Assembly (NCBI GenBank): GCA_044227665.1
Contig: JBGAWK010000004.1
Coordinates: forward strand, 10,901-74,900
Source of the DNA: Chitinophagales bacterium
Lineage (GTDB): Bacteria; Bacteroidota; Bacteroidia; Chitinophagales; JADIYW01
DNA: 64,000 bases
Direction of reading: 5' to 3'
Part shown: positions 6,310-58,757 of the stretch, piece after piece
How the letters are laid out: each line of letters begins with the position of its first letter
Position numbering within the stretch: position 1 is the first letter of the stretch
Translations under genes and position numbers: made by a program
The notes under the pieces: model-generated
Databases searched by the model: none
What the model saw: the letters and a program-made list of their open reading frames with translations, nothing else
What the model was told of the DNA's origin: nothing

Positions 6310-8799
6310 CTATTTTTCCTTGGATTTTGCAGGTTTTTCTTTCCATGTCATATCCCAATCGAAACGCAGTGAATACTGGCGAGGTGCTTCCATCAATCCA
6401 GGACGTAAGGAATATTCATGATTTGTAACATTCTTGACTATAGCCGAAATTTTGAACATGTCGGCTTTGCCAAATTTATATCCTATACGCATATCTATAA
6501 TAAAATCACCTTTATATTGACGACCCAGCCTCTTGTCTTGGTAATTTTCGCGCTTATTACTTTCACGCCATTGGCGTAATGCTATTGCAGTACCATAGGT
6601 GGTAAGGGGACTTGTAAATACGCCGTCTAGGTTTTCCATAAAGCTGAAATATTGCCCTGTCACTCCTAGTTCTAGTCCATGAATACTTACATCCCAAGAG
6701 CCTGTGAATGTATGTCTGAAGCGATATTTTAGGATATTATAAGGAATACCTGTAGGATCTATAGCTATACCCGAGGCTGCTACCGAGTCATTGAAATCTA
6801 TATATTTTGGTACGATATACGTATATCCCAACATGGCTGTATATGGTATTTTCCCTAATTTGCCCTCGCCCATCAATCCTACTTCCATTCCATATATGCG
6901 TATGTCTCCGACATTGGTAGATCTAAAGCCTAATGAAGGTTGTGTAGTGATATTGAACTCCATCATATTTTTATACTGGGTATAAAATGCCGAAGCATCG
7001 GCATAGGCTTTGAAGCCTCCTATTTTCAATCCTTGTTTTATGCCTAGTTCATAGCTAAATCCTGTCTCGGACTCTAATAGTGGGTTGGGGAAGATTCCCA
7101 CATTGCCGCCTAGTGATGTTTGAATAAATTTCTCCGCTATGGTAGGGAATCTATAGCCCATACCGAAAGAGGTGCGCAAGAAAGTATATTCAGCAGCTTG
7201 ATAGTTGACACCAAATCTTCCCACGGGTTTCGTTTGCCGTTTGGTGTCTGTAATTTGATTGGTTTCCAGTCTAAAACCGGCAGAGATATTTAGTCTGTCA
7301 AAGAACTTCTTATCCAATTGCATATATAGCCCATAATTTGACCCTTTCAATACTTTGTCTCCATATAGTAGGGCAGATACGGTAATATATTGTGCAACTA
7401 CGCCACCGCTTATTACCATATTTATCTTGCTTATCTTCCTTTGGTATTGGTATTCTCCATACAGTAAATCTGAGAAATTGCTTTGATTATTGGTATTATT
7501 ATTGTCCACTTTATACCATCTACCTAGAATTTTGTGGCTATTGCCTTTTTCATCTAAATAACGGAAATAGGGATCGAGTGTTAGCTTTAGACCTTTGGTC
7601 TCTGTAGAGGCTCCTGTGAGTCCAAAATTGGATATATACCTATCTCCACCAGAAGGAATAGTATAATCAGAAGAACCATTATATAAGAAGAAACTTTGGC
7701 TCTTGGACTGCTGGTAGTTGAAATTTATTCCTACGCTAATATTTTGGGTTATCCGATACCTAGTCTGTAAGCTCAGTCTTCCATAATTGTTATTAGCTTG
7801 GTATTTGTAGTCATTGACGAACTTACCCATAGCACCTGCAACGACATCGAATTTTCCGAATTGCTGCCTGTGCCCCACCAGAAAACCTGTCTCATAAGGA
7901 CGGCTATAATCGGAAATATCTATAGTATCATAATCGGTACTATTTATATCTCCATTTTTATATATTATTTGATCTTTTTTCCACCAAGCTTTATCCACTT
8001 TTACTTTCTCTACTTTGTCAGTAAAAGGGTCATATTTATAATCTGTCTGATTTGGAGCATTCCAGATCCCTCCGAATAGGCTAATTTTTGTTTTGGGCTC
8101 ATTGGTAGGATACGCGGTACGCACATTAATGATACCATTCATAGCCGAGGATCCGTATAGTGCTGAACTAGCCCCTTTTATAATTTCTATTTGTCCTATA
8201 TTTTCTATAGGTAGGGAAGTCCAAGATGGAAATCCTGCGTCAGCTTGTAAAATTGGTAAGTCATCCAATAATAGGAGTACTCTACTACCTGCACCATAAG
8301 AATATCCCGAACCTCCTCGTATATTCGCTTGTCCATCAATAATTGTTACGCCAGGATTTTTTTGTACTGCTTGGGAGACATCTGTAAGATTTTGCCTTTC
8401 TAGAAACTGTGGTTTCATCACGTCCATGGATACCGTTTGTTCCCCTAACTTCTGTTCAAACTTAGAGCCTGTAACTACTACGGTCTCTAGCAAGGTAGGT
8501 TCTTCTCCCATAACTAAATCTATAATCTTCGTCTCACCACCTTGAACTTGCACTCTTATATTGCGAGTCAAATAGCCCGTATAACTAAATACAAGACTTA
8601 CTACACCTGAGGGAACTACTAAGGAATACGCCCCATCTATATCAGAGATGGCACCTAATGTAGTGCCTTCGACAACTATATTTACACCAATTAATGTTTC
8701 TCTAGAAATTGAATCAGTAATAATTCCCTTGATAGTGGTTTCTTGTGCATTAGTACTAAATACACATAATATAAACAATAGGCTAACGAATCTTCTCAT
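6310..8799 (-). CDS. TonB-dependent receptor with N-terminal carboxypeptidase-regulatory-like domain
   Basis: Signal peptide (MRRFVSLLF..), 'GVNIVVEGTTLG' domain, plug (IRGGSG..IEIIKGASSALYGS), barrel motifs (NPLLESE); TATTTTTG promoter at 8821-8828 favours ATG 8799. Confidence 0.92.
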   Translation of the reverse strand: MRRFVSLLFILCVFSTNAQETTIKGIITDSISRETLIGVNIVVEGTTLGAISDIDGAYSLVVPSGVVSLVFSYTGYLTRNIRVQVQGGETKIIDLVMGEEPTLLETVVVTGSKFEQKLGEQTVSMDVMKPQFLERQNLTDVSQAVQKNPGVTIIDGQANIRGGSGYSYGAGSRVLLLLDDLPILQADAGFPSWTSLPIENIGQIEIIKGASSALYGSSAMNGIINVRTAYPTNEPKTKISLFGGIWNAPNQTDYKYDPFTDKVEKVKVDKAWWKKDQIIYKNGDINSTDYDTIDISDYSRPYETGFLVGHRQQFGKFDVVAGAMGKFVNDYKYQANNNYGRLSLQTRYRITQNISVGINFNYQQSKSQSFFLYNGSSDYTIPSGGDRYISNFGLTGASTETKGLKLTLDPYFRYLDEKGNSHKILGRWYKVDNNNTNNQSNFSDLLYGEYQYQRKISKINMVISGGVVAQYITVSALLYGDKVLKGSNYGLYMQLDKKFFDRLNISAGFRLETNQITDTKRQTKPVGRFGVNYQAAEYTFLRTSFGMGYRFPTIAEKFIQTSLGGNVGIFPNPLLESETGFSYELGIKQGLKIGGFKAYADASAFYTQYKNMMEFNITTQPSLGFRSTNVGDIRIYGMEVGLMGEGKLGKIPYTAMLGYTYIVPKYIDFNDSVAASGIAIDPTGIPYNILKYRFRHTFTGSWDVSIHGLELGVTGQYFSFMENLDGVFTSPLTTYGTAIALRQWRESNKRENYQDKRLGRQYKGDFIIDMRIGYKFGKADMFKISAIVKNVTNHEYSLRPGLMEAPRQYSLRFDWDMTWKEKPAKSKEK

Positions 8800-8901
8800 T
8801 TTCTTTAAGTAATTATTTCCCAAAAATAAATAAATCGTATTAATAGGCAATAGATAAATATTTTTTTACTACAATTATATTAATTTTCCTTTGGGTATAA
8901 A

Positions 8902-8935
8902 AAAATAAAGGCTGCCCGAAGGCAGCCTTTATTTT
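8902..8935 (-). terminator. Intrinsic terminator after the lipoprotein gene (possibly bidirectional)
   Basis: AAAATAAAGGCTGCC-cgaa-GGCAGCCTTTATTTT perfect inverted repeat. Confidence 0.85.
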
Positions 8936-8954
8936 AATAAGTTAAGTGCATTTC

Positions 8955-9488
8955 TTATTGCTTAGCCATATTAGCATTTACTTTCACGATGCCGCCACCT
9001 ATATTTTTTCCATCAATGATAGATAAATCAGGATCTGTCGTATGTATTACCCCAGTTTGAACTGTAAGCTTAAACTTAAGTGCTGATCCAGCAGTTTTGC
9101 CATTTAAAGTTCCTGAACCAGTAAGTTTCAAATTTGTAACTTTAGTTTCGTTACCTGCTGTATCTAGGGGACTTACGATGAACTCTGAAGACTCAAAACT
9201 AGGTATAACCACAGAGCCGTTCTCACTTACAGTACCTTCAAAACTCGCATCCAATATCTTACTATAAACGTTTACTTTATTATCACCTACAGTAGTATTG
9301 GTTACAAATACAGTATCCGTAACGGGGTCTATAATTGCCCCTAATCCTTCAAATGAATATGTCCCACGATACTCGCCCAAGAAGTCTGCTTCCGTATAAG
9401 TTACTTTTTCATCATCTTTACATGAGGTAACAAAAGATAGTGCGGCAACAGCCAATACTGTAAAAAATAAAAATCTAGATTTTTTCAT
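8955..9488 (-). CDS. Lipoprotein, beta-rich (calycin-like?)
   Basis: Lipobox FVTSC followed by KDDE surface-export-type signal; beta-strand pattern. Confidence 0.7.
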   Translation of the reverse strand: MKKSRFLFFTVLAVAALSFVTSCKDDEKVTYTEADFLGEYRGTYSFEGLGAIIDPVTDTVFVTNTTVGDNKVNVYSKILDASFEGTVSENGSVVIPSFESSEFIVSPLDTAGNETKVTNLKLTGSGTLNGKTAGSALKFKLTVQTGVIHTTDPDLSIIDGKNIGGGIVKVNANMAKQ

Positions 9489-9608
9489 ATTTTATAAATT
9501 AGTTTTATAGTTAGACGACAAATATATTGATAAGATTGTATAGTAGGTTAGAATTTTACTATTATTAGGTATTTTTTTATTAACACAATTTTTACTATCC
9601 ATTAATAA

Positions 9609-10841
9609 TTAAGATAGTTCAATTAGGGTAATCTCTGGCGGCATACCCCATCTTCCCGGATAACCGATAAACCCCAATCCTCTATTTACATATAAATGCT
9701 GCCCATTGGACATGTAATGTCCTGCCCAATGTGGATATATCAGTTTTGATGGACTCCACTTTATCCATCCCGGCACTTCAACACCCATTTGGAATCCATG
9801 TGTATGTCCACTCAATGTCAAATCTATAAAGTGATACTTGTCTTCTTTGGAAACTTCGGCATCCCAATGTGAAGGGTCATGAGACAATAAAATTGTAGCA
9901 TCCGATTTTGGCATACCCTCAATTGCTTTTTGCAAGTCGCCAAATTTTCCAAAAGATAGAGATTTTCCCCAATATTGAATACCTATCATCGCCAAGCTGG
10001 CATTGCCACATTTCAATATCCTGTGTTCATCCAGCAGCAAGTCCCACCCCATTTTTTTATGGGTATCTATGAGATTTCTGAAATTGTCGGCTTTTTGCTG
10101 CAAGCTTTCCCACTCTAAGTAATCGCCATAGTCGTGATTTCCCAGGATAGAAAATTTTCCATATTTTGCTTGCAAGAGATAAAATATGTCTATAAATTCA
10201 CGTGCCTCTTTAGCCTGCTCATTCACCATATCTCCAGTAAATACTATTATATCGGCATTCAAGTCATTTATCATCTTTATGACTTTCTCCATAGGTCGAG
10301 TATTTACAAAACTTCCCAAATGCAAGTCGGATATTTGTACTATACGCAACCCTTTCAGATCGGGGTGCAAGTTGTTGATTTTTATTCCCACCCTTCGTAC
10401 CGTATAATTATAGGCACCGCGTACCATCCCATATATCATTCCCCCAAGCCAAAAACCTCCTATGACAAGTGCCGTTTTATGTAAAAACATCTTTCTTGAA
10501 ATATTATTAGTAGATTCAGAAGGCTTGGACAATAGTGAGAAAAACCACTGAAAAATTTTGAACACATCGCCTATCAGTAAAAATACCACTAAAGTAAATT
10601 TGAATGAAAGCCAGCTGATGCCTAATCCTTGTAAAGGAAGCCTAAGATATACCGGCACATTCTCTCTGCCCATAATAAGGTAAGCTAAAAAAGTAAGATA
10701 AGTAACTACATTAAAAGCCCAATATAGGTATCGCAAAAACAGCCATTTTGACGAAGTATCAAATACTATCTTTATAGTTTGATAGGCATATAAATCTATC
10801 AGCACAATTATGATCAGCGGAATAAATATCCAATAACTCAC
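9609..10841 (-). CDS. Membrane-anchored metallophosphoesterase
   Basis: DLH, GD, GNHD, SHDP and GHTHG calcineurin-like motifs; N-terminal TM helices. Confidence 0.9.
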   Translation of the reverse strand: MSYWIFIPLIIIVLIDLYAYQTIKIVFDTSSKWLFLRYLYWAFNVVTYLTFLAYLIMGRENVPVYLRLPLQGLGISWLSFKFTLVVFLLIGDVFKIFQWFFSLLSKPSESTNNISRKMFLHKTALVIGGFWLGGMIYGMVRGAYNYTVRRVGIKINNLHPDLKGLRIVQISDLHLGSFVNTRPMEKVIKMINDLNADIIVFTGDMVNEQAKEAREFIDIFYLLQAKYGKFSILGNHDYGDYLEWESLQQKADNFRNLIDTHKKMGWDLLLDEHRILKCGNASLAMIGIQYWGKSLSFGKFGDLQKAIEGMPKSDATILLSHDPSHWDAEVSKEDKYHFIDLTLSGHTHGFQMGVEVPGWIKWSPSKLIYPHWAGHYMSNGQHLYVNRGLGFIGYPGRWGMPPEITLIELS

Positions 10842-47798: not shown

Positions 47799-50700
47799 AT
47801 GAAAAAAAATCTACTTATTCTATCTCTAACTTTATTGTACTTAGCAAAGAGTTATGGACAATTGGCAGATATTACCTATTCTATCCGGACAGGCAATATT
47901 ACGAGTTATGAGAATGCTACAGGGGGTGATTGTTGGGAAACAGGTACTGAGGAATACACAGGATATCTCGACTCTTGGGACAACGTAAATAGCACATGGG
48001 TGGGTACAGGCTGTCAAACCTGTGACAACAACGGAAATTGTACATACGCTAGTGATATAGCTTTACAAACCCGCTCTAACAATGCTTATACTGTAACATT
48101 TAGAATTGATGCGTGGGAGGACGATAAGAGTGGAAGGTGTTCCTATGACGGACCATCAGATGATTGCCGTAGAAATGAAACAAATACTACAGATATTAGA
48201 GAACTAGCCTACCCTTCTAATGGCACTTACACGAATACTAGCACTTGGGGGAGCACAGGTAATCATACGTACTATTTTAAATGTACTTGGAAATATTCGG
48301 GTACTGCAAACCTTATTACTCCTTCTGCATCCTGCCAGTCAGCTAATGTAGCTACAGGTGCTATTCGATCGTGGTCAGTAAATATGACTGCAGGCACTAC
48401 TTATGCATTCAGCAATTATGGTTCAGGTGCAGATACTAAAATTAGGATTTATAATACTGATGGCTATACAATTATGGCATCAAACGATGATAACGGACCT
48501 CATGTTGCTGGTTCAGCAGCTTCGATAGAATATACAGCTCCATCTACCGGTACATATTATGTAGAGTTATCAAATTTTGACAGATCAGAACTTACCACTA
48601 ATTCAACACTATCCTATTGGATAAAACCTACTTCTATTGCTGGATTTGGTAGCAATACATGGAATATATTAGGTTACAATAAGTCAGATTTAGCATTATC
48701 AAGCAATACTTATGTAGGCTATTATAATGTTAATTCACTATCTTACAATACGAGCTCTGGCCCTGGAATTTATACGAACACACCTACAGATGCTACAGGA
48801 TGGACGGGAGGGTGTGTTCACCCTGATTACCATACAGTAGTAGCTAAAAGACAAGGATTCCCTTGCAAGATTTATCAACTAGATATACCTAATCACGATG
48901 ATGATATAAGAGTATTTGTAAATGGAAATCAGGTATATGAACATTTAGGCTGTTGCGATAATCATAGTAATATCTGGACAGGCTACTTAACCTCTACTTC
49001 TACTATTGAAGTTCGTCACATTGATGGCGTAGGTGGTTCGAACCAAGGTCTTACACTTACAGATGTAACCACAGCTTTAAACGGAGGTAGTATCGCTGGT
49101 ATTACCAATGGAACTACAATATGTACAGGCGGAGACCCTGGTGCGTTCACGAGTACTGCGAGTGGAAGTGGTGGAACTATAGGCATTACTAATGGTTCTC
49201 CGTCAGCAGAAACATACCAATGGGAGTCTTCAACAACAAGTAGTACTACAGGATATTCAAATATTGGAGGTGCTACCTCTACAACTTACGACCCAGGAGC
49301 ACTTACTGCAACAACATGGTTCAGACGCAGAGTAACAGATGCTTGTGGTACAGTTAGCTATTCTAACGTAATACAGGTAGTAGTTGTAGCAGATCCTACT
49401 GCACCTACTGCAACTAAATCACCAGCTGTGGCGACAGTATGTGCTGGTGCTACACTTACGCTTACTGGACCTACTGCTGGCGCAGGCGGAACAGGAACTT
49501 GTAACTTTGAATATCGCTATAGCTTTGATGGTGTAGGCTATACTTCTTGGAATACATCAGTGCCTTCTATCACGGCTGTAACGGGTACAAATTATATAGA
49601 AATCAGAACAAATTGTAGTGGAATTGGATGTGATATTAGCCCTACAACTTCCTACTCATGGACTGTAGCTGCTGACCCTACTGCCCCTACCAATACACCT
49701 ACACCTTCGGCTTCTACCGTGTGTGTGGGCGCAACATTAAGTGTATCTGCTGGAGGTAGTTCCGGAGGCACAGGTACTTGTGCTTATGAATACGCTATAG
49801 ATCCGGGTACTGGAACATTTGGTACTTGGGGCGCTACAAATTCAGTTACCGCTTCATCTATTGGAAATGGTACTTATAGAATAAAATCTAGAAGGAACTG
49901 TAATGGCAATGGCTGCGATATTTCTCCGGAAAGTGCAATTACTTCATGGACTGTAGTGGCAGATCCATCAGCACCTACTGCTACCAAGTCTCCAACAGAT
50001 GCCACCGTATGTGCTGGACAAACACTTACGCTTACTAGTCCTACGCTAGGAACTGGCGGTACAGGTACTTGCAACTTTGAATATAGATTCAATACTGGTG
50101 GTGGCTTCTCTGCATGGGGTAGTTCCGTACCTAGCTTTACTGCTGTTACAGGTGCAAATACTATAGAAATCAGAACAAATTGTAATGGTAATTCATGTGA
50201 CGCATCCCCTGCATCTTCATATTCGTGGACTGTAGCTGCAGATCCGTCTGCACCTACAGGTATGACCAAGTCTCCTAATGATGCTAGTGTATGTGTAGGA
50301 GCAACACTCACTGTTACAGGTGCTGCCGCAGGAACTGGCGGTACTGGTACTTGTAATGTAGAATACAGATACAGTACTGATAATGGAGGAAACTATTCAG
50401 GGTGGTCTACATCGGTACCTTCTATCTCTACTGTGGTAGGTACTACAATTATTCAAGCAAGCACTCTTTGTACGGGCTTAGGTTGCGATAGAAGTGCCAC
50501 AAGTCAAGTATCATGGGTGGTAGAGCCTGATCCTTCCGCTCCTACTGCCACAAAGTCTCCAAATCTTACGTATGTATGTGATGGAGAAGTCGTTACATTG
50601 ACTAATATTACAGATAACGGTGGTGGAACAGGAACTTGCGATATTGAATATGCCTTGGATAATGGCTCAGGCAGCTACGGTTCGTGGACTACTACAATAC

Positions 50701-52283
50701 CTTCCTATACTGTATCTGCTCCATCTGGAGATATACGTATAAAAATGCGAAAAAATTGTAATGGTGCTGGATGTAATATTAGTAATGAAACATTATACTC
50801 TTGGGATGTATTTACTAAGTCAACAGATCCTATATCTTTAACACCTACAGCAACTTATGTATGTGATGGAAGTACTGTTTACTTATTAGTAAATGGTGGA
50901 TCTCTAGGAAATGATGGCTCTCAATGGTATCTTTATGATGCAGATCCCAATGCAGGAGGTAATTTATTAGCATCCAATGCTTCGGGATTCTTTACAATAT
51001 CTAACATATCTGGCACCTATGACTATTATGTAAGAGCTGAGGGAGATTGTGGTGTAACTAATACTGTAAATGCACTTGTAGTAACTTCTGCAGGTACAGA
51101 TGCCTCTACTTATGATGATTGTCTTGTTTCATCAACTACATCAAATACTTGTAATGTTAGTGGCTCTCAAACACATTACTTTGTTAACTCATCAAATTGT
51201 GAAATATTCCAAATAAATTCTAATGGTGCTAATCTAGGAAGTACCACATTAACTAGTACCGTTGCAGGAAATGGTCCTGTTGGAGATGGTGGTGATTTTG
51301 CAAGTTGTGATGTAGCTAGCGGTGGTCCTGGTGGAGAATACCATGTGGAAAGGGTCTTTAACTTCTCTTCTGCAAATAGTCCAAGTGGTGCTAATATTAC
51401 GCTTACACAATGTATTACAGATGCTGAATACAATAATTATGAGGGCTTAGCTGCATTCACAGATCCAGACTATCAGAGATGTTATGGGACTACAACAACT
51501 GCTGCAGACCTATCAATAACATGCTTTAATAGTGCAGGTAACGTAGCCTATGTAGGCTCTCCTACCTATTCATCCAAAACGCTTGGAGGAAATACTGTAC
51601 ACTGTTATACATTTACTATTGCAAGTAGTAACCTTAGAACTAGAGGAATAAGTGAATCCAATATTACTGCCTATGGTGATTGTGAGTGCTATCTTCACTC
51701 CTCTGGTGGAGAAGGTGGTCCTCTTCCTATAGAACTTACGAACTTTACGGGTACTTATACCAATAATGCCGTAAGATTAGATTGGGCTACTGCATCAGAA
51801 AAAAATAATGACTACTTTGAACTATTACGTTCTACTGATGGTACAAATTTTGAAGTCGTTGCAACCCTAGATTCAAAAGCTCCTTTTGGCACATCTAATT
51901 ATGTAATTAACTATGAATACACAGACAACAATGTTGTAGGTGGGGTTGTATATTATCAATTGAAACAAACGGACTTTGATGGTACAACATCACTATCTAA
52001 GGTAGTATCCGTAGAAATTCCACAACAATTACTAATTAGTGATTTCCGTCCTAATCCTGCTAAAAATGATGTATCAGTAAAAATTAGTACTACAAGATCT
52101 ACTGACGTTCAGTTTGCATTAGTAAGTATTGATGGTAGAAGGGTAATAGAAAACAACTATAGCTTCAGTAAAGGTGTAAGCCAAATAAATGTAAACCTTT
52201 CAGGATTAGCTTCAGGTACTTATATCGGAGAGTTCATTATAGATGGTATTAAGTATAACAAAAAACTTGTTATCACTCAGTAG
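47799..52283 (+). CDS. Large Cys/Thr/Gly-rich T9SS cargo protein with internal repeats
   Basis: Signal peptide; PPC-like (DT.IRIY..DG..MASNDD) and PA14-like (DDDIRVFVNG) segments; PLPIELTNFTG module; CTD 'FRPNPA...GTY...KKLVI'. Confidence 0.88.
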   Translation: MKKNLLILSLTLLYLAKSYGQLADITYSIRTGNITSYENATGGDCWETGTEEYTGYLDSWDNVNSTWVGTGCQTCDNNGNCTYASDIALQTRSNNAYTVTFRIDAWEDDKSGRCSYDGPSDDCRRNETNTTDIRELAYPSNGTYTNTSTWGSTGNHTYYFKCTWKYSGTANLITPSASCQSANVATGAIRSWSVNMTAGTTYAFSNYGSGADTKIRIYNTDGYTIMASNDDNGPHVAGSAASIEYTAPSTGTYYVELSNFDRSELTTNSTLSYWIKPTSIAGFGSNTWNILGYNKSDLALSSNTYVGYYNVNSLSYNTSSGPGIYTNTPTDATGWTGGCVHPDYHTVVAKRQGFPCKIYQLDIPNHDDDIRVFVNGNQVYEHLGCCDNHSNIWTGYLTSTSTIEVRHIDGVGGSNQGLTLTDVTTALNGGSIAGITNGTTICTGGDPGAFTSTASGSGGTIGITNGSPSAETYQWESSTTSSTTGYSNIGGATSTTYDPGALTATTWFRRRVTDACGTVSYSNVIQVVVVADPTAPTATKSPAVATVCAGATLTLTGPTAGAGGTGTCNFEYRYSFDGVGYTSWNTSVPSITAVTGTNYIEIRTNCSGIGCDISPTTSYSWTVAADPTAPTNTPTPSASTVCVGATLSVSAGGSSGGTGTCAYEYAIDPGTGTFGTWGATNSVTASSIGNGTYRIKSRRNCNGNGCDISPESAITSWTVVADPSAPTATKSPTDATVCAGQTLTLTSPTLGTGGTGTCNFEYRFNTGGGFSAWGSSVPSFTAVTGANTIEIRTNCNGNSCDASPASSYSWTVAADPSAPTGMTKSPNDASVCVGATLTVTGAAAGTGGTGTCNVEYRYSTDNGGNYSGWSTSVPSISTVVGTTIIQASTLCTGLGCDRSATSQVSWVVEPDPSAPTATKSPNLTYVCDGEVVTLTNITDNGGGTGTCDIEYALDNGSGSYGSWTTTIPSYTVSAPSGDIRIKMRKNCNGAGCNISNETLYSWDVFTKSTDPISLTPTATYVCDGSTVYLLVNGGSLGNDGSQWYLYDADPNAGGNLLASNASGFFTISNISGTYDYYVRAEGDCGVTNTVNALVVTSAGTDASTYDDCLVSSTTSNTCNVSGSQTHYFVNSSNCEIFQINSNGANLGSTTLTSTVAGNGPVGDGGDFASCDVASGGPGGEYHVERVFNFSSANSPSGANITLTQCITDAEYNNYEGLAAFTDPDYQRCYGTTTTAADLSITCFNSAGNVAYVGSPTYSSKTLGGNTVHCYTFTIASSNLRTRGISESNITAYGDCECYLHSSGGEGGPLPIELTNFTGTYTNNAVRLDWATASEKNNDYFELLRSTDGTNFEVVATLDSKAPFGTSNYVINYEYTDNNVVGGVVYYQLKQTDFDGTTSLSKVVSVEIPQQLLISDFRPNPAKNDVSVKISTTRSTDVQFALVSIDGRRVIENNYSFSKGVSQINVNLSGLASGTYIGEFIIDGIKYNKKLVITQ
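49380..50810 (+). repeat. Five tandem ~95-aa (about 280-290 bp) repeats in the T9SS protein
   Basis: Units 'V.ADP.APT.TKSP...VC.G.TL...GGTGTC..EY...W....PS.....C.G.GC.......SW' begin near 49380, 49662, 49950, 50229 and 50517. Confidence 0.88.
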
Positions 52284-53926: not shown

Positions 53927-55111
53927 TTATACCTTCAAGTTGGAGATAGCTATCCAGCACATAAGCCCTGCTCCTATTTCCAAGCAATCTTCATCTACAT
54001 CAAAAGTAGGGGTATGTATGCCAGATGTAATTCCTTTAGTTTTGTTGCCTGTGCCCAATCTATAAAAGCACGCAGGAACTACTTGTGAGTAATAGGAAAA
54101 ATCTTCTGCTGTCATGCGTATATCCAAAGGCATTACATTCTCTCTTCCTAGAAAAGCAATGGCAGCATTTTCTGCTATTTCTGTTAGATGTTCATCATTA
54201 TTCAGATACGGATAACCATGCTCAATTCTACATTCTGCCGAAGCCCCCATACTCTCTGCTACGGTATTCACGAGTGAGACAATTTTTTCCTTTGCTACAC
54301 CTCTCCATTGCTCATCAAAAGTCCTCAGTGTACCTTCCATAAATACCTTCTCAGGGATGACATTAGTAGCACCATCTGCTATAAATTTTCCTATTGTGAG
54401 CACTGTAGGCATAGTAGGATTGGCATTCCTGCTTACAATTTGTTGAAGGGCAACGACAATATGAGAAGCAACCAATACGGTATCTATAGCCAAATGTGGA
54501 ACAGCCCCATGTCCCCCTTTTCCTGTTACTGTGATAAAAATCTCATCACAAGATGCCATACTTAATCCTTTACGAAAAGCTACCTTGCCCACTTCAAGCT
54601 GAGGAAGTACATGCTGACCACAAATTCCGGAAACACTAGGATTTTCCAACACTCCTTCTTTTATCATTATTGATGCCCCACCGGGAAGTCGCTCCTCCGC
54701 AGGCTGAAATATAACCTTCACAGTACCCTCCCACTCATCTCTAAAATTTTGTAATAGTATGGCCGCTCCCAGCACACATGTAGTATGTACATCATGACCG
54801 CAAGCATGCATCACTCCATTATTACAAGATTTGTATATCACATCATTCTGTTCTTCTATGGGAAGAGCGTCCATATCTCCTCTTATTGCAAAAACCTTAC
54901 TATGTGGATTCTTACCCTCTATGATGGCTACTATACCATGTCCTCCAATATTTCTAGTGTATTTTATGGCAGCCTTTTCTAATTGTGCACATATATAAGA
55001 GGCGGTTTTCTCCTCGTGGAAGGACAATTCTGGATGCTGATGCAAATATCTACGCACCTCTACGAGATAGCCTTTGAGTGTACTCACTTTTGATTTTATA
55101 TTCTCAATCAT
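53927..55111 (-). CDS. M20D family amidohydrolase
   Basis: HQHPELS, RGDMDALP, MHACGHD, FQPAEE, GGHG, AEDF. Confidence 0.92.
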   Translation of the reverse strand: MIENIKSKVSTLKGYLVEVRRYLHQHPELSFHEEKTASYICAQLEKAAIKYTRNIGGHGIVAIIEGKNPHSKVFAIRGDMDALPIEEQNDVIYKSCNNGVMHACGHDVHTTCVLGAAILLQNFRDEWEGTVKVIFQPAEERLPGGASIMIKEGVLENPSVSGICGQHVLPQLEVGKVAFRKGLSMASCDEIFITVTGKGGHGAVPHLAIDTVLVASHIVVALQQIVSRNANPTMPTVLTIGKFIADGATNVIPEKVFMEGTLRTFDEQWRGVAKEKIVSLVNTVAESMGASAECRIEHGYPYLNNDEHLTEIAENAAIAFLGRENVMPLDIRMTAEDFSYYSQVVPACFYRLGTGNKTKGITSGIHTPTFDVDEDCLEIGAGLMCWIAISNLKV

Positions 55112-55207
55112 TCTTCCTAATTAGTAAATACAAAAATGATGATTTATAGTATATAATTTATGGTTTTGATAATAAATAAAAATCATAAAACATATAACTT
55201 TGTAATA

Positions 55208-55594
55208 GTGAGAAGGGTCTTGCCTATATTTTTTTTACTCTTATTTCTAAGTCAATATATAATAAAACTTGGCATTGTCATAAATTTCAATCTATTTCAG
55301 GAAGAAATTATCGCCAACTGCTGTATAAATAAAAACCGTCCAGAATTAGAATGTTATGGTAAATGCTATTTACAAAAACAAATACGCAGCGTGGACAATA
55401 ACAATCTCCCTGTTCAAAATAATGGAATAAAAAAGTTTCAAGAAACAGATTTATTTATCATAGAAGATATGGATTTTATTCCTAAGCTTTATACCAAGAC
55501 TTTAGAAAAAAGAATTTTTTCATTTTATGCCTCTTTTTTAATTGACCAAAATGCTCTTTTTGGCCTTTTGAAACCTCCACAAATGCTAGGGTGA
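55208..55594 (+). CDS. Cys-motif upstream ORF with C-terminal Pro-Pro (CruR/CutF-like candidate)
   Basis: GTG 55208, 5 nt after TAACTTTG; N-terminal hydrophobic segment; CINKNRPELECYGKCYL; ends LLKPPQMLG. Confidence 0.7.
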   Translation: MRRVLPIFFLLLFLSQYIIKLGIVINFNLFQEEIIANCCINKNRPELECYGKCYLQKQIRSVDNNNLPVQNNGIKKFQETDLFIIEDMDFIPKLYTKTLEKRIFSFYASFLIDQNALFGLLKPPQMLG

Positions 55595-55635
55595 ATTTCC
55601 ACTATTCTAAGCACATAATTTTTCACTCTATCATT
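55582..55635 (+). promoter_or_regulatory. Predicted stem-loop from the uORF stop region to just before the next start codon
   Basis: AATG-C-TAGGGTGAA (55582-55595) pairs with TTCACTCTA-T-CATT (55622-55635); ATG at 55640. Confidence 0.5.
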
Positions 55636-55639
55636 AATC

Positions 55640-56572
55640 ATGAAAAAAGCAATATTTATTTGTTGCTATATGGCTATTGTATCTTTCAATATGGCATGTG
55701 ATATCTGCGGATGTTCGGCACGAGAAAATACACTAGGTATCTTGCCACAAATACAAAAAAATTTCATAGGCACAAGCTATCAATATAGAAGCTTTAGTTC
55801 TTCACATATACCTGACGATACATCAGATGATAATATAACTGGATTCAGTAAGGAAAAATATCATACACTTTCTCTAACAGGAATGTATTCACCCATATCC
55901 CGTTTGAAAATCACTGCTCAGTTGCCTTTCAATTTTTATAATAAAAACGAATATGGCACTAGTGTATATTCTAGAGGTATAGGTGATATTGCATTCATGG
56001 TCCTTGGAGAAGTTTATAGCACAAAACAGTGTAAACCAAACGGCATTAAACATTTACTAATGGCAGGTATAGGCACAAAGTTCCCTACAGGTAGCATCAA
56101 TAAAAAATATGGCATTGCAATTTTAGAGCAAAACATGCAAACTGGGACTGGATCTTTTGATTTTCCGTTTCTTGCATACTATGCACTTAAAACAAAAAAA
56201 TCAGGCATCAGGTCAGAATTACAATATATACTTAGCACCGAAAATAAAAAAGACTTTAAATTTGGCAATCGCTTTAGTGGTAATCTTCAGACTTGGTACT
56301 GGTATGAAAAGAAGCAATGGAATGTCATCCCCTTTGTAGGTGCGCAATTGGATTGGTCTGGAAAAGACAAAAATCTAGGTATAATTAATGATTATTCCGG
56401 TGGCTGTATGCTGAACGGGATGATAGGCACTGATGTATTTATCAAAAATTTCGGGTGGGGAGTTTCCGTTAAAACCCCTTTATATCAAAATATTGGAATG
56501 GGACACATTGACAACAAAATCAAGTGTAATATTCAATTTATTTATTTAATACAAAAAAACAAAAAATCATGA
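55640..56572 (+). CDS. Outer-membrane beta-barrel 'transporter' with N-terminal CDICGC motif
   Basis: Signal peptide then CDICGC; GIGDI, KFPTG and QTGTGS.D motifs of the MetA-pathway/transporter barrel type. Confidence 0.72.
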   Translation: MKKAIFICCYMAIVSFNMACDICGCSARENTLGILPQIQKNFIGTSYQYRSFSSSHIPDDTSDDNITGFSKEKYHTLSLTGMYSPISRLKITAQLPFNFYNKNEYGTSVYSRGIGDIAFMVLGEVYSTKQCKPNGIKHLLMAGIGTKFPTGSINKKYGIAILEQNMQTGTGSFDFPFLAYYALKTKKSGIRSELQYILSTENKKDFKFGNRFSGNLQTWYWYEKKQWNVIPFVGAQLDWSGKDKNLGIINDYSGGCMLNGMIGTDVFIKNFGWGVSVKTPLYQNIGMGHIDNKIKCNIQFIYLIQKNKKS

Positions 56573-56970
56573 AAAAACAATTTTTATTAGCACTAATAGC
56601 AATTACTTTATCGTCAATAATATCTTGCAAAAAAGATGAAGTAGATACTTCTATTGACCACGTACTTATCACTTCACCAACTACCGGACAGACCTTTGAT
56701 GCATTGGACACAGTACCCATAAGAGCCTTGTTACAAAACAATACAGAAATGCATGGACTTGTAGTATCTCTTGTAAACCTAAGTGATACTACTGTTGTCT
56801 TTCAAATGGATGAACATGTTCATGGCGTTTCGATAAACCTAGATACATTTTGGATAAATAATGTGATGATGCATTCAGATATGCGCTTATATATTACTGC
56901 AGAGATTGACCACGAAGGCACAACGGTAACAGATTCTGTAAATTTCCATTGCCATCCATCTATGCTATAA
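56569..56970 (+). CDS. His/Met-rich lipoprotein (putative metal-binding, Ig-like)
   Basis: Lipobox ISC-KKDE; EMHG, MDEHVHG, MMHSDM, DHEG, FHCHP. Confidence 0.7.
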   Translation: MKKQFLLALIAITLSSIISCKKDEVDTSIDHVLITSPTTGQTFDALDTVPIRALLQNNTEMHGLVVSLVNLSDTTVVFQMDEHVHGVSINLDTFWINNVMMHSDMRLYITAEIDHEGTTVTDSVNFHCHPSML

Positions 56971-56988: not shown

Positions 56989-57726
56989 ATGAAAAACTTT
57001 AAAATAGGATTTACTATCCTTATATCCATCTTTTTGCTTCTTTCATGTAAAAAAGAAGAAACTATTACCACTCCACAAACACTAAAGTTCCATTGGCATT
57101 CTATGGTAGGTGATGATGACGCAAAATTTGCTACGAATTACACTACCAATGGAATAAATTTTAATCTTAGTGACTGGAGATATTACGTATCTAATTTTGT
57201 GCTCATTAAATCTGATGGTACAGAATATCCTGTAGATGGAAGTGTATTTTTAATAAAAATCTCACAAGATGAATATGAATTAGAAAATATACCCACAGGT
57301 TCCTATAAAGGATTCCGTTTTTCGCTAGGTCTTGATTCCGCAACTAATCATAAAGACCCAACTACTTATGATGCCTCAAATCCTCTCGCAGTACAAAGCC
57401 CAGCAATATATTGGACCTGGAGTTCAGGCTACATCTTCATGAAAGTAGAGGGAAAATATGACTCTTCGATTGCTCAAACCGGCCCCATAAACCAACCTTT
57501 CTTTTATCATGTAGGAACTGACATGATGAAGCAAAGCATAGACTTTAGTACTCATGCATTTACGATCACTGAAGGTGGTAGCAATACTATACATATAAGT
57601 ATGGATATTTTAAAAATGCTTGACAAATTAGACCTTAGAACAGAGAATGCAACGCATACAATGGATAATATGCCATTGGCAACAAAAGTTAGAAATACTT
57701 GGACTAGTGTTTTTGAAGTAGAATAA
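56989..57726 (+). CDS. mbnP: MbnP family copper-binding lipoprotein
   Basis: Lipobox LSC; RYYVSN, G.Y.G.RF.LGLD..TNH, WxW motif YWTWSSGYIFMKVEG, YHVG. Confidence 0.82.
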   Translation: MKNFKIGFTILISIFLLLSCKKEETITTPQTLKFHWHSMVGDDDAKFATNYTTNGINFNLSDWRYYVSNFVLIKSDGTEYPVDGSVFLIKISQDEYELENIPTGSYKGFRFSLGLDSATNHKDPTTYDASNPLAVQSPAIYWTWSSGYIFMKVEGKYDSSIAQTGPINQPFFYHVGTDMMKQSIDFSTHAFTITEGGSNTIHISMDILKMLDKLDLRTENATHTMDNMPLATKVRNTWTSVFEVE

Positions 57727-57736
57727 TTTTTTCAAG

Positions 57737-57765
57737 TTAGGGAGCAAGCCTTGCTTGCTCCCTAA
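57737..57765 (+). other. Strong intergenic hairpin between mbnP and mbnH
   Basis: TTAGGGAGCAAGC-ctt-GCTTGCTCCCTAA; no U-tract follows. Confidence 0.8.
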
Positions 57766-57776
57766 TATATTATATT

Positions 57777-58757
57777 ATGATTCAGAAAATATCTATATTC
57801 ATCTTACTACTTCTGCTATTAGGTTGTAAAAAAGAGGAATATCATGCAGAAGAATATAAACTAAATATACCTATAGGTTTTCCCAAACCATCGATTCCTG
57901 CTGATAATATACCTACGTCAAAAAAAGTAGCATTAGGAAAAATGCTATTCTTTGATCCAATACTATCCCGTGACAGCACAATATCATGTGCTTCTTGTCA
58001 TTTTGAAGACAAAAAATTTACAGATGGGAATATAGTAAGTATTGGTATTGAAGGGAGAAAAGGGTTGAGAAATGCACCTTCATTAGTAAACGTAGCCTAC
58101 CTTCCAAATATGTTCTGGGATGGTGGAGTTCCAAATCTTGAACAGCAAATATTAGCTCCGATTGAAAACGTGAACGAAATGGACTTCAACGTACCTGAAG
58201 TCATTGAGCGTTTACTCAAAAATGATACATACAAACAATTATTTATAGAAGCATTTGACAGACTTCCTGATATATATACATTTACTAGAGCTATAGCCAG
58301 TTTTGAAAGAACGCTATATTCTGGGCTTTCACCGTATGATGATTATACCTATAACCACAATCACAATGCACTCAATGCCTCTGAGATTAGAGGTATGGAG
58401 ATTTTCATGGGCGAAAAGGGTGAGTGTTTCCATTGTCATGGATCCTATTTGTTTACTGATCATAGTTTTGCTAATAACGGTCTTTATGAATTTTATGCAG
58501 ATTCTGGCAGAGCAAGAATAACACTTCTACAGAAAGATGTAGGAATGTTCAAGGTCCCTTCTTTACGCAATATAGCTCATACTGCTCCCTATATGCATGA
58601 TGGTTCTCTAGCAACACTAGAGGATGTCATAGAGCATTACAATTCTGGTGGAAAAAATCATATCAATAAAAGTCCTATTATTAAACCTTTACACCTTACT
58701 GCTGAAGAAATAGAAGATCTTTTAGCATTTCTTCATGCATTATCTGACGATAAATAA
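57777..58757 (+). CDS. mbnH: MbnH-like di-heme cytochrome c peroxidase/MauG family lipoprotein
   Basis: Two CxxCH motifs (CASCH, CFHCH), RNAPSL, FWDG, FKVPSLRN..TAPYMHDG; directly after mbnP. Confidence 0.82.
   Translation: MIQKISIFILLLLLLGCKKEEYHAEEYKLNIPIGFPKPSIPADNIPTSKKVALGKMLFFDPILSRDSTISCASCHFEDKKFTDGNIVSIGIEGRKGLRNAPSLVNVAYLPNMFWDGGVPNLEQQILAPIENVNEMDFNVPEVIERLLKNDTYKQLFIEAFDRLPDIYTFTRAIASFERTLYSGLSPYDDYTYNHNHNALNASEIRGMEIFMGEKGECFHCHGSYLFTDHSFANNGLYEFYADSGRARITLLQKDVGMFKVPSLRNIAHTAPYMHDGSLATLEDVIEHYNSGGKNHINKSPIIKPLHLTAEEIEDLLAFLHALSDDK

Follow-up and report, generated by a model that had tools for sequence, protein, structure and literature searches.

The 64,000-nucleotide stretch of Chitinophagales bacterium DNA considered here (contig JBGAWK010000004.1, positions 10,901 to 74,900 of the forward strand; called the window in what follows) carries at 55208-55594 a small gene that is probably a cis-acting, copper-sensing stalling leader of the operon behind it, which would encode an outer-membrane β-barrel, a lipoprotein, MbnP and MbnH. 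The leader would work in the manner of CutF and CruR and would represent a separate, Bacteroidota-wide family; the stalling, the copper binding, the action in cis and the effect on the downstream genes are proposed from comparative anatomy. A preliminary description, made from the letters of the window, had read the locus as a copper-responsive ribosome-stalling switch. The anatomy it listed, that is an export segment, a cysteine motif, a near-terminal Pro-Pro (PP), an RNA helix after the PP and a copper context, holds up as a set of family traits; the particular stem on which it leaned fares less well, being marginal and lost in silico in a natural allele. The leader gene and its parts are the following.

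55195..55202, + strand: putative -7 promoter box TAACTTTG, fitting the Bacteroidota TAnnTTTG pattern and ending 5 nucleotides (nt) before the GTG start
55208..55594, + strand: leader gene, member of an unnamed Bacteroidota family, 128 codons, with a GTG start and a TGA stop at 55592-55594
55217..55294, + strand: predicted transmembrane helix (signal anchor), residues 4-29 of an AlphaFold2 model
55319..55372, + strand: Cys module CCINKNRPELECYGKCYL, residues 38-55, in which C49-x3-C53 forms a CxxxC
55373..55567, + strand: spacer, residues 56-120, unconserved in sequence and conserved in length
55568..55579, + strand: L-K-P-P, residues 121-124, with the Pro codons at 55574-55579; family motif [FL][HKRQ]PP

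Counted from an in-frame ATG at 55160, upstream of the GTG at 55208, the open reading frame (ORF) would have 144 codons; it is given 128 because three close homologues known as proteins alone (P0002-P0004, 59-83% identity) begin at the GTG position. The label of an upstream ORF (uORF), under which it was first described, does not suit a gene of that length encoding a conserved protein. The hydrophobic N-terminal stretch, taken at first as an export or transmembrane segment, is modelled as a helix over residues 4-29 with a predicted local distance difference test (pLDDT) score above 90. Two Arg precede this helix and acidic residues follow it, so that by the positive-inside rule the protein would lie N-in/C-out; no obvious signal-peptide cleavage site is seen. 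The motif C-x-NK-x-RP-x3-C-x-GKC of the preliminary description is found at residues 38-53 (CCINKNRPELECYGKC; C-C-I-N-K-N-R-P-E-L-E-C-Y-G-K-C). The terminal K-P-P it reported is present at the Pro codons named above, but it is not strictly terminal: four codons, Q-M-L-G, and the stop still come after it, which places the PP of the window at -6. AlphaFold2, run on the family alignment, gives residues 1-60 a block-mean pLDDT of 91-98, with helices at 4-29, 31-38 and 52-65; residues 66-113 are coil, with block means of 56-64 over residues 71-110, and a short helix, 114-120, stands just before the PP.

The window ORF matches no Pfam family at E<=0.1 and no NCBIfam family. Its own family comprises 2191 representative proteins or clusters at E<=1e-3, mostly of 120-140 amino acids (aa), in a HMMER pass over 1.84 billion representatives; a six-frame search of a sample of 301 genomes of the window's order finds it in 201, and a profile search of 151 genomes sampled from the phylum finds it in 46. 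None of 106 aligned members matches any Pfam family convincingly, NCBIfam names none, and in the ESM Atlas the 30 nearest clusters hold Bacteroidota proteins to which Pfam assigns no family. DUF6660 (0.88), the closest Atlas cluster with a name, serves as a lead only and was not adopted as the family's identity.

Conservation within the family is concentrated at two places. C39, N41, P45, C49, G51, C53, L55, P123 and P124 are invariant in the 106 aligned members, and residues 56-120 hold no conserved column. The preliminary description had named a conserved terminal xxPP as one check of its proposal, and a near-terminal PP proves invariant in the family. It lies within the last 11 residues of 151 of 153 library proteins, the two exceptions looking truncated or divergent, and each of the 89 genes of a locus set has it 1-6 residues ahead of its stop (100 fetched genome stretches, searched with a hidden Markov model from the library hits, gave 99 ORF matches and 88 distinct genes, 89 with the window). 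The tail after the PP, of 1-9 residues across the family, is unconserved. The last Cys and the first Pro are a median of 68 residues apart (interquartile range 67-70, range 64-81) in 235 of 241 proteins, and 70 apart in the window (C53 to P123); the 241 are 152 library and 89 locus proteins, with overlap between the two sets kept, and the other six lack one motif by regular expression. Two positions before the PP, F is found in 135 and L in 37 of these 235 proteins; directly before it stand H (106), K (33), R (32), P (31) and Q (18). As far as alignments can tell, the family is built from a conserved, sensor-like head, a spacer of fixed length and free sequence, and an invariant Pro-Pro near the stop.

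A main rival has to be weighed against this build. It holds that the product is an ordinary, stable small inner-membrane copper-binding protein (a chaperone, a sensor, or a partner of MbnP, MbnH or the barrel) acting in trans, with the PP motif as a protein contact and with the hairpin described below as an ordinary device for coupling or mRNA stability; this is unlikely, although it deserves the closest attention among the alternatives. A length of ~125 aa together with wide conservation is typical of real proteins, and the model, with pLDDT above 90 over residues 1-60, sets two helices on either side of the invariant Cys/Asn/Pro/Gly constellation. However, a coil spacer of ~60 residues, with no conserved position and yet a near-constant length, is difficult to reconcile with a domain that folds or binds, and the unconserved tail after the PP speaks in the same direction. 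CutF and CruR share this size and build; both have a regulatory role and can hardly be detected as proteins (PMC9973294, PMC9426467).

The start of the gene adds to the picture of a leader translated from the very end of its message. The -7 box ends 5 nt before the GTG, which implies an untranslated leader of ~0-1 nt at the presumed transcription start site (TSS), and calling the ORF leaderless-type, as had been done at the outset, is reasonable. Among 82 non-redundant family loci, 50 have an exact TAnnTTTG whose end lies 4-10 nt upstream of the conserved start codon, the start codon being taken in this test as the in-frame codon 38 residues before the invariant Cys. In Flavobacterium johnsoniae the box occupies -12 to -5 (T-12..G-5), with 4-5 nt to the TSS, in the study by Baez 2019 (PMC6847099); taken together with the distances from box to start, this published spacing puts family mRNA leaders at ~0-6 nt. 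The same study gives 87% of predicted F. johnsoniae leaders as longer than 10 nt (PMC6847099), and in F. psychrophilum 5.5% of mRNAs, and no more, are leaderless (PMC9723704). The codon at the conserved start position is GTG in 28, TTG in 20, ATG in 17 and another codon in 11 of 76 genes. Near-leaderless and mostly non-AUG initiation is an unusual combination in these loci, and gene callers may miss or mis-start the leader because its GTG or TTG start lies at the 5' end of the transcript. Such a promoter and such a start suggest a low output, unlike that of a stoichiometric partner, and in this respect they argue against a stable membrane protein. A sigma-70 promoter scan found 18 sites against 20.8 expected, that is no excess; the sigma-70 model is not applicable to this phylum.

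The third element is a predicted RNA helix between the end of the leader gene and the start of the next, whose two arms in the window were located with RNAfold.

55582..55595, + strand: predicted 5' helix arm, covering codons M126-L127-G128, the TGA and 1 nt beyond
55622..55635, + strand: predicted 3' helix arm, at -18 to -5 from the barrel ATG

RNAfold pairs 55582-55585 and 55587-55595 with 55622-55630 and 55632-55635 (4 + 9 = 13 pairs). The 5' arm sets in at the third nt after the PP and the 3' arm stops 4 nt short of the ATG at 55640, as in the interrupted stem of roughly 13 base pairs noticed in the preliminary description. This interrupted stem is absent from the list of a repeat finder run with a seed of 6.

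Across the family the same region tends to pair with the same target. Near-duplicates were collapsed (83 of 89 loci kept) and a gap of 15-130 nt was required, which left 68 loci and dropped 15; the downstream ORF was the same-strand ORF of at least 90 codons, with its first ATG as start, in a crude ORF finder. Duplexes between the 27 nt after the PP and the 30 nt that precede the next ATG in the same locus average -7.56 kcal/mol, against -4.64 with the start regions of other loci; as a control, the 27 nt before the PP, paired with start regions, reach -4.76 kcal/mol. The observed mean was attained in 0 of 10000 permutations. Twenty of the 68 loci fall below the 5th percentile of mismatched pairs and ten below the 1st; the window's own duplex, at -14.2, is the sixth strongest of the 68, and the 1st percentile of mismatched pairs is -12.9.

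In folds that included 60 nt of upstream sequence, the probability of belonging to a 5' arm is 0.18-0.19 on the PP codons, climbs through 0.40, 0.54, 0.60 and 0.60 along the 12 nt that follow, and drops to 0.42 and 0.27 beyond them. Of the 68 loci, 61 have a confident arm. Where this arm starts relative to the PP is unaffected by the length of the tail (r -0.07), whereas its distance from the stop shifts with that length (r -0.49). The arm start thus tracks the PP and not the stop, which means that the helix is anchored on the PP, and this again goes against a stable protein with an ordinary coupling hairpin. Measured from the stop, the family's 5' arm peaks at -9 to -1, with 0.52-0.58 against 0.27-0.31 in controls, these being 57 other same-strand junctions from the same stretches, where hairpins begin 3' of the stop. 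The 3' arm has its maximum at -21 to -13 of the next ATG (0.50-0.57, controls 0.39-0.43), and the summary value of the 5'-arm probability is 0.60 in the family and 0.43 in the controls (p 3e-5). A helix with its start between PP-6 and stop+6 and its end at most 25 nt from the next ATG is predicted in 41 of 68 loci.

Whether such a helix acts on initiation or on the fate of the transcript is a separate matter. The same stalling leader could have its output in transcription or in the survival of the mRNA: a ribosome standing at the end of the ORF would block Rho or an endonuclease, its release would lead to termination or decay before the barrel gene, and the helix would be secondary. CruR, the precedent for an uptake operon, works via Rho (PMC9426467); a leaderless start would tie the first ribosome closely to RNA polymerase; and the hairpin lies well upstream of the next start in 15 of 68 loci, while several intergenic regions hold more, inner hairpins. 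Such an output is nevertheless rather improbable. The gaps are short (15-130 nt in 68 of 83 non-redundant loci), as against 162 nt in CruR, described as unstructured, and the 3' arm lies preferentially at -21 to -12 of the next ATG, a position that speaks for control of initiation. For most loci an intrinsic terminator was discarded as the main output, a U-rich tail following just one of 56 classified helices.

The mechanism that would join these elements in the proposed leader runs as follows. The mRNA would start at the GTG or 1 nt before it, the box being seen in the sequence and the TSS being deduced from it. The N-terminal helix would insert N-in via SecYEG and leave the three-Cys module on the periplasmic side. 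The exit tunnel holds 30-40 residues, and the translocon and the gap another 25-35; a spacer of 68-70 residues would thus put the Cys module just outside SecYEG when the ribosome stands at L-K-P-P, ~70 residues past the last Cys, with the spacer filling the exit tunnel and translocon and the module barely out. The ribosome shields ~12-15 nt 3' of the first P-site base. If it paused at Pro-Pro while Pro124 occupied the P site, ~8-11 of the 5' arm's 14 nt would be covered and the helix kept open, which would free positions -18 to -5 of the barrel start region. Initiation in Bacteroidota would need an unstructured upstream region. Copper occupancy of the Cys module would set the length of the pause. 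In the preferred, CruR-like polarity copper would shorten the pause, the ribosome would leave, the helix would re-form and the uptake genes would be switched off; this is more likely than the opposite, CutF-like polarity, because the operon encodes uptake functions.

Several results weigh against the proposed switch, beginning with the stem of the window itself. Its minimum free energy (MFE) is -11.7 kcal/mol, its z-score is -1.71, and 8 of 200 dinucleotide shuffles fold equally well; by itself the stem is unremarkable, at about chance level, and its significance derives from the family-wide pattern and from nothing else. No Rfam 15 covariance model matches 55000-55800 at E<=1. A natural allele, G55593A, which turns TGA into TAA and a G-C pair into A·C with the partner at 55624 unchanged, is present in the contigs of three of four DNA runs compared (X2, X7 and X10; X6 is identical to the window). 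With it the expected arm-to-arm pairs drop from 12.2 to 0.5 and the MFE goes from -11.7 to -7.7. All this would suit a chance pairing in AT-rich sequence, in an operon controlled at its promoter only and with leader-like traits that carry no regulatory meaning at this locus. Such a coincidence is highly improbable in view of the rank of the window's duplex among the 68, past the 1st percentile of mismatched pairs, and of the positional signals across the family; moreover, the G55593A variant still folds a local hairpin, with a 5' arm that starts 5 nt after the PP.

In the contigs of a more distant relative (X7, X10) the Cys module and the barrel start align, and 55387-55638 is replaced by ~260 unalignable letters. 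The spacer, the tail and the intergenic region therefore evolve far faster than the Cys module and the barrel start.

Other points on this side concern the family. The contrast in duplex energy with the control junctions is moderate (-7.09 against -5.79; Mann-Whitney p 0.02), hairpins being frequent at control junctions too, and 27 of 68 loci are without a helix that reaches the start (15 end farther upstream, 12 have none). A covarying stem was the other check proposed for the homologues: no pair changed on both sides in three small sub-family alignments, and alignment A4 yields no consensus structure, its 3' arms being misaligned. DNA of relatives sought for covariation gave 134 pattern matches in genome contigs and 591 in metagenome contigs, of which none was confirmed. 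The loci come from related genomes with crude gene calls, and all the structures are in silico.

Finally, a terminating ribosome would also melt the 5' arm, which means that the helix itself needs no pause at PP. A PP with Q, K, A or S after it is not known as one of the strongest stalling contexts, and ordinary PP pauses should be relieved by elongation factor P (EF-P). The N-terminal module, modelled with high confidence, fits a stable membrane protein equally well. A stable protein with a hairpin opened by termination would also be at ease with the loci in which the helix is missing or distal, and with its loss in the natural allele; it would be less so with a 5' arm that begins at the PP. 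On this evidence the cis-acting copper-sensing leader remains the probable reading.

Behind the leader, the window contains the following genes.

55640..56572, + strand: predicted outer-membrane β-barrel of 310 aa with a FapF/COG4313-like fold and a CDICGC cluster after its signal peptide
56569..56970, + strand: lipoprotein-like ORF of 133 aa, overlapping the barrel stop by 4 nt
56989..57726, + strand: MbnP-family copper-binding protein (PF20243, E 1.3e-40)
57777..58757, + strand: MbnH-like di-haem cytochrome c peroxidase (PF03150, E 1.1e-52)

The barrel that the preliminary description had placed after the leader is, by structure prediction, a 12-stranded outer-membrane barrel: a model built on an alignment of 36 counterparts has a pLDDT of 84.3 and a predicted template modelling score (pTM) of 0.81, and Foldseek matches it to 5o65, 5o67 and 4rl8 (FapF and the COG4313 channel; E 6e-12 to 1.6e-10, TM-score on the query, TMq, 0.59-0.65). 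The barrel protein has no Pfam match. The 133-aa ORF sits where DUF4625/CopC-like ORFs sit in three other loci (L022, L036 and L040) and is likened to them by position alone. The MbnH-like gene also matches TIGR04039 (E 2.7e-86), under the curated cut-off of that model. Upstream of the leader, on the opposite strand, lies an M20 peptidase gene. Judged by its gene content, the copper context of the locus is real.

A same-strand downstream ORF stands behind all 89 family genes, and these ORFs fall into the following classes.

42 of 89, including the window: barrel-size class of 285-330 aa, with a Cys cluster after the signal peptide
12 of 89: MbnP
9 of 89, one of them unscanned: ORFs of 114-148 aa without a match
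7 of 89: YtkA-like
6 of 89: TonB-dependent receptor
6 of 89, two of them unscanned: ORFs of 348-365 aa without a match
2 of 89: one DUF4625 (E 1.2e-4) and one near-identical, unscanned copy
5 of 89: others

Genes for MbnP, MbnH and DUF4625/CopC-like proteins recur farther downstream in family loci. The 42 downstream barrels (the window, at 55640-55720, and 41 loci) carry the Cys cluster right after the signal peptide, as a CDICGC, SCCCT or CSCG type, which suggests a metal site at an N-terminal plug or tether. One locus (L022, ~6930-9872) has two family genes in a single cluster: the first precedes a 547-aa ORF without a Pfam match, and the second precedes a barrel, MbnP, MbnH and a DUF4625-like gene. 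In the window, a hairpin of 14 pairs (7 G-C, loop of 3) lies between MbnP and MbnH at 57736-57766 on the + strand and is followed by ATATTATATT; it may be a site of intra-operon attenuation or processing. Farther upstream of the locus, at 47799-52283 on the + strand, is a gene for a repetitive, Thr/Ser/Gly-rich secreted protein of 1494 aa.

A switch of this kind would be a further case of what CutF and CruR do, in a separate family, and its interest is tempered by a catalogue of 2023, discussed below, and by a stem that is weak and sensitive to an allele. A wider claim, put forward tentatively and with less conviction than that made for the window, is that Bacteroidota independently evolved phylum-wide nascent-chain copper sensors, with near-leaderless GUG or UUG mRNAs, an [FL][HKRQ]PP arrest, a disordered ruler of ~68 residues spanning the tunnel and SecYEG, and a PP-anchored helix gating initiation independent of the Shine-Dalgarno (SD) sequence; these sensors would be convergent, and not homologous, with CruR and CutF. 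If this is true, copper sensing by a nascent exported chain is not peculiar to the proteobacterial DUF2946 proteins and was reached at least twice, the second solution operating in a phylum that initiates without Shine-Dalgarno pairing. The variation within the family would then allow one to ask what makes X-X-P-P an EF-P-resistant arrest signal; the fixed 68-residue spacer would be a ready ruler for the transmission of periplasmic force or folding to the peptidyl-transferase centre, and the family would offer a test of mRNA structure alone gating initiation in Bacteroidota. Apart from any mechanism, an unannotated gene is delimited, which heads copper-uptake operons with MbnP/MbnH, barrel and TonB-receptor genes in two thirds of the Flavobacteriales-type genomes sampled.

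CutF and CruR had been invoked as precedents from the beginning. The regulatory logic proposed here matches theirs; homology to CutF or to DUF2946 was not detected. CutF of Rhodobacter capsulatus, in cutFOG, has a signal peptide as well as a CxxxC and a PPP at the C-terminal end, together with a stem-loop that covers the cutO ribosome-binding site; copper lengthens the CutF stall and overrides EF-P (PMC9973294; bioRxiv 10.1101/2025.02.05.636593). Like CutF, the window protein is a predicted small exported protein, the product of a copper operon's first gene, with a CxxxC and a near-C-terminal proline motif, and it is followed by a short intergenic region whose stem-loop would mask the next initiation region and could be opened by a ribosome held at the prolines. 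The ORF falls within the working rules for CutF-like proteins (fewer than 150 aa, PP in the last 15 residues, a same-strand gene within 1000 nt) with its 128 aa, PP at -6 and a gap of 45 nt, and a stem-loop of the CutF type, masking the next start within reach of a ribosome at the PP, is predicted for the window and lost in the G55593A allele. The novelty claimed for the phylum has to be tempered in this light: Ozturk et al. 2023 counted 5,334 rule-defined CutF-like proteins, 76% of them in Pseudomonadota and already 19% in Bacteroidota (PMC9973294). No description of this family or of its motif was found in the literature, in a search outside of which the published lists of CutF-like proteins lay.

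The differences from CutF are several. Where CutF has PPP, the window family has [FL][HKRQ]PP and three invariant Cys plus N, P and G, and the distance from Cys to Pro is ~68 residues against ~40 in CutF. The N terminus of the family looks like an uncleaved anchor, whereas that of CutF is a cleavable Sec signal. The family's mRNA, unlike that of CutF, appears near-leaderless with a mostly non-AUG start. There is no Shine-Dalgarno sequence in the window locus, where the helix covers -18 to -5 of an SD-less start, in contrast to the ribosome-binding site covered in CutF. The genes downstream are uptake genes here and a detoxifying oxidase gene for CutF, and this may mean a reversed polarity.

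The other precedent is CruR (Bp2923 of Bordetella pertussis, DUF2946/PF11162). According to Roy et al. 2022, copper relieves the RAPP arrest, whereupon Rho ends transcription ahead of the uptake genes; CXXC and RAPP lie 45 residues apart, within one or two, throughout the CruR family, lengthening by 5 impairs regulation, and homologues are placed in Proteobacteria and a few other phyla, Bacteroidota not being named there (PMC9426467). In vitro, the ribosome arrests at RAPP when its P and A sites are occupied by the two Pro codons (PMC12992588). The window family resembles CruR in heading copper-uptake operons (with a TonB-dependent transporter, and with MbnPH-like genes in CruR relatives) and in its make-up: an invariant Cys motif and an invariant xxPP stand at a fixed spacing, an export signal is predicted, and the remainder is poorly structured. 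A fixed spacing is common to both, its value is not (45 residues in CruR, 68 in the window family), and the motifs differ, CXXC and RAPP in the one case, C39-x9-C49-x3-C53 and L-K-P-P (FHPP-type in the family) in the other. In CruR the intergenic region is long and unstructured and the output depends on Rho; in the window locus the region is short, with a predicted helix. CruR furthermore senses copper independently of its signal peptide (PMC9426467).

As to descent, none of the 106 family members matches PF11162 (cut-off 23.7 bits) at E<=1, and a six-frame search of the window's genome puts no match on the leader ORF. An hhalign comparison of the 106-member alignment with four Bacteroidota DUF2946-like RAPP ORFs gives a probability of 2.1% over 21 transmembrane columns, a weak negative from a thin profile. 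As far as these tests reach, the family would be an analogue of DUF2946 and not a member. The four ORFs (L102-L105) are an observation in their own right: His/Cys-rich and ending in S/P-R-A-P-P, they occur in 4 of 151 phylum genomes, against 46 of 151 for the window family, one of them above the cut-off, at loci apart from that family, in contrast to the published statement that groups such as Bacteroidota lack copper-related RAPP/RGPP uORFs (PMC12992588).

The RAPP/RGPP arrest peptides ApdA, ApdP and their relatives offer another comparison, as small membrane or exported proteins encoded upstream of a regulated gene that arrest at a C-terminal X-X-P-P; they differ from the window family in that F or L and H, K, R or Q, and not R-A or R-G, precede the PP in the latter. 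In SecM/secA and MifM/yidC2 a nascent exported chain carries an arrest that is tuned by the pulling force at the membrane, and a stem-loop frees the downstream start. SecM and MifM monitor the export machinery and not a metal, and they use longer, specific arrest sequences.

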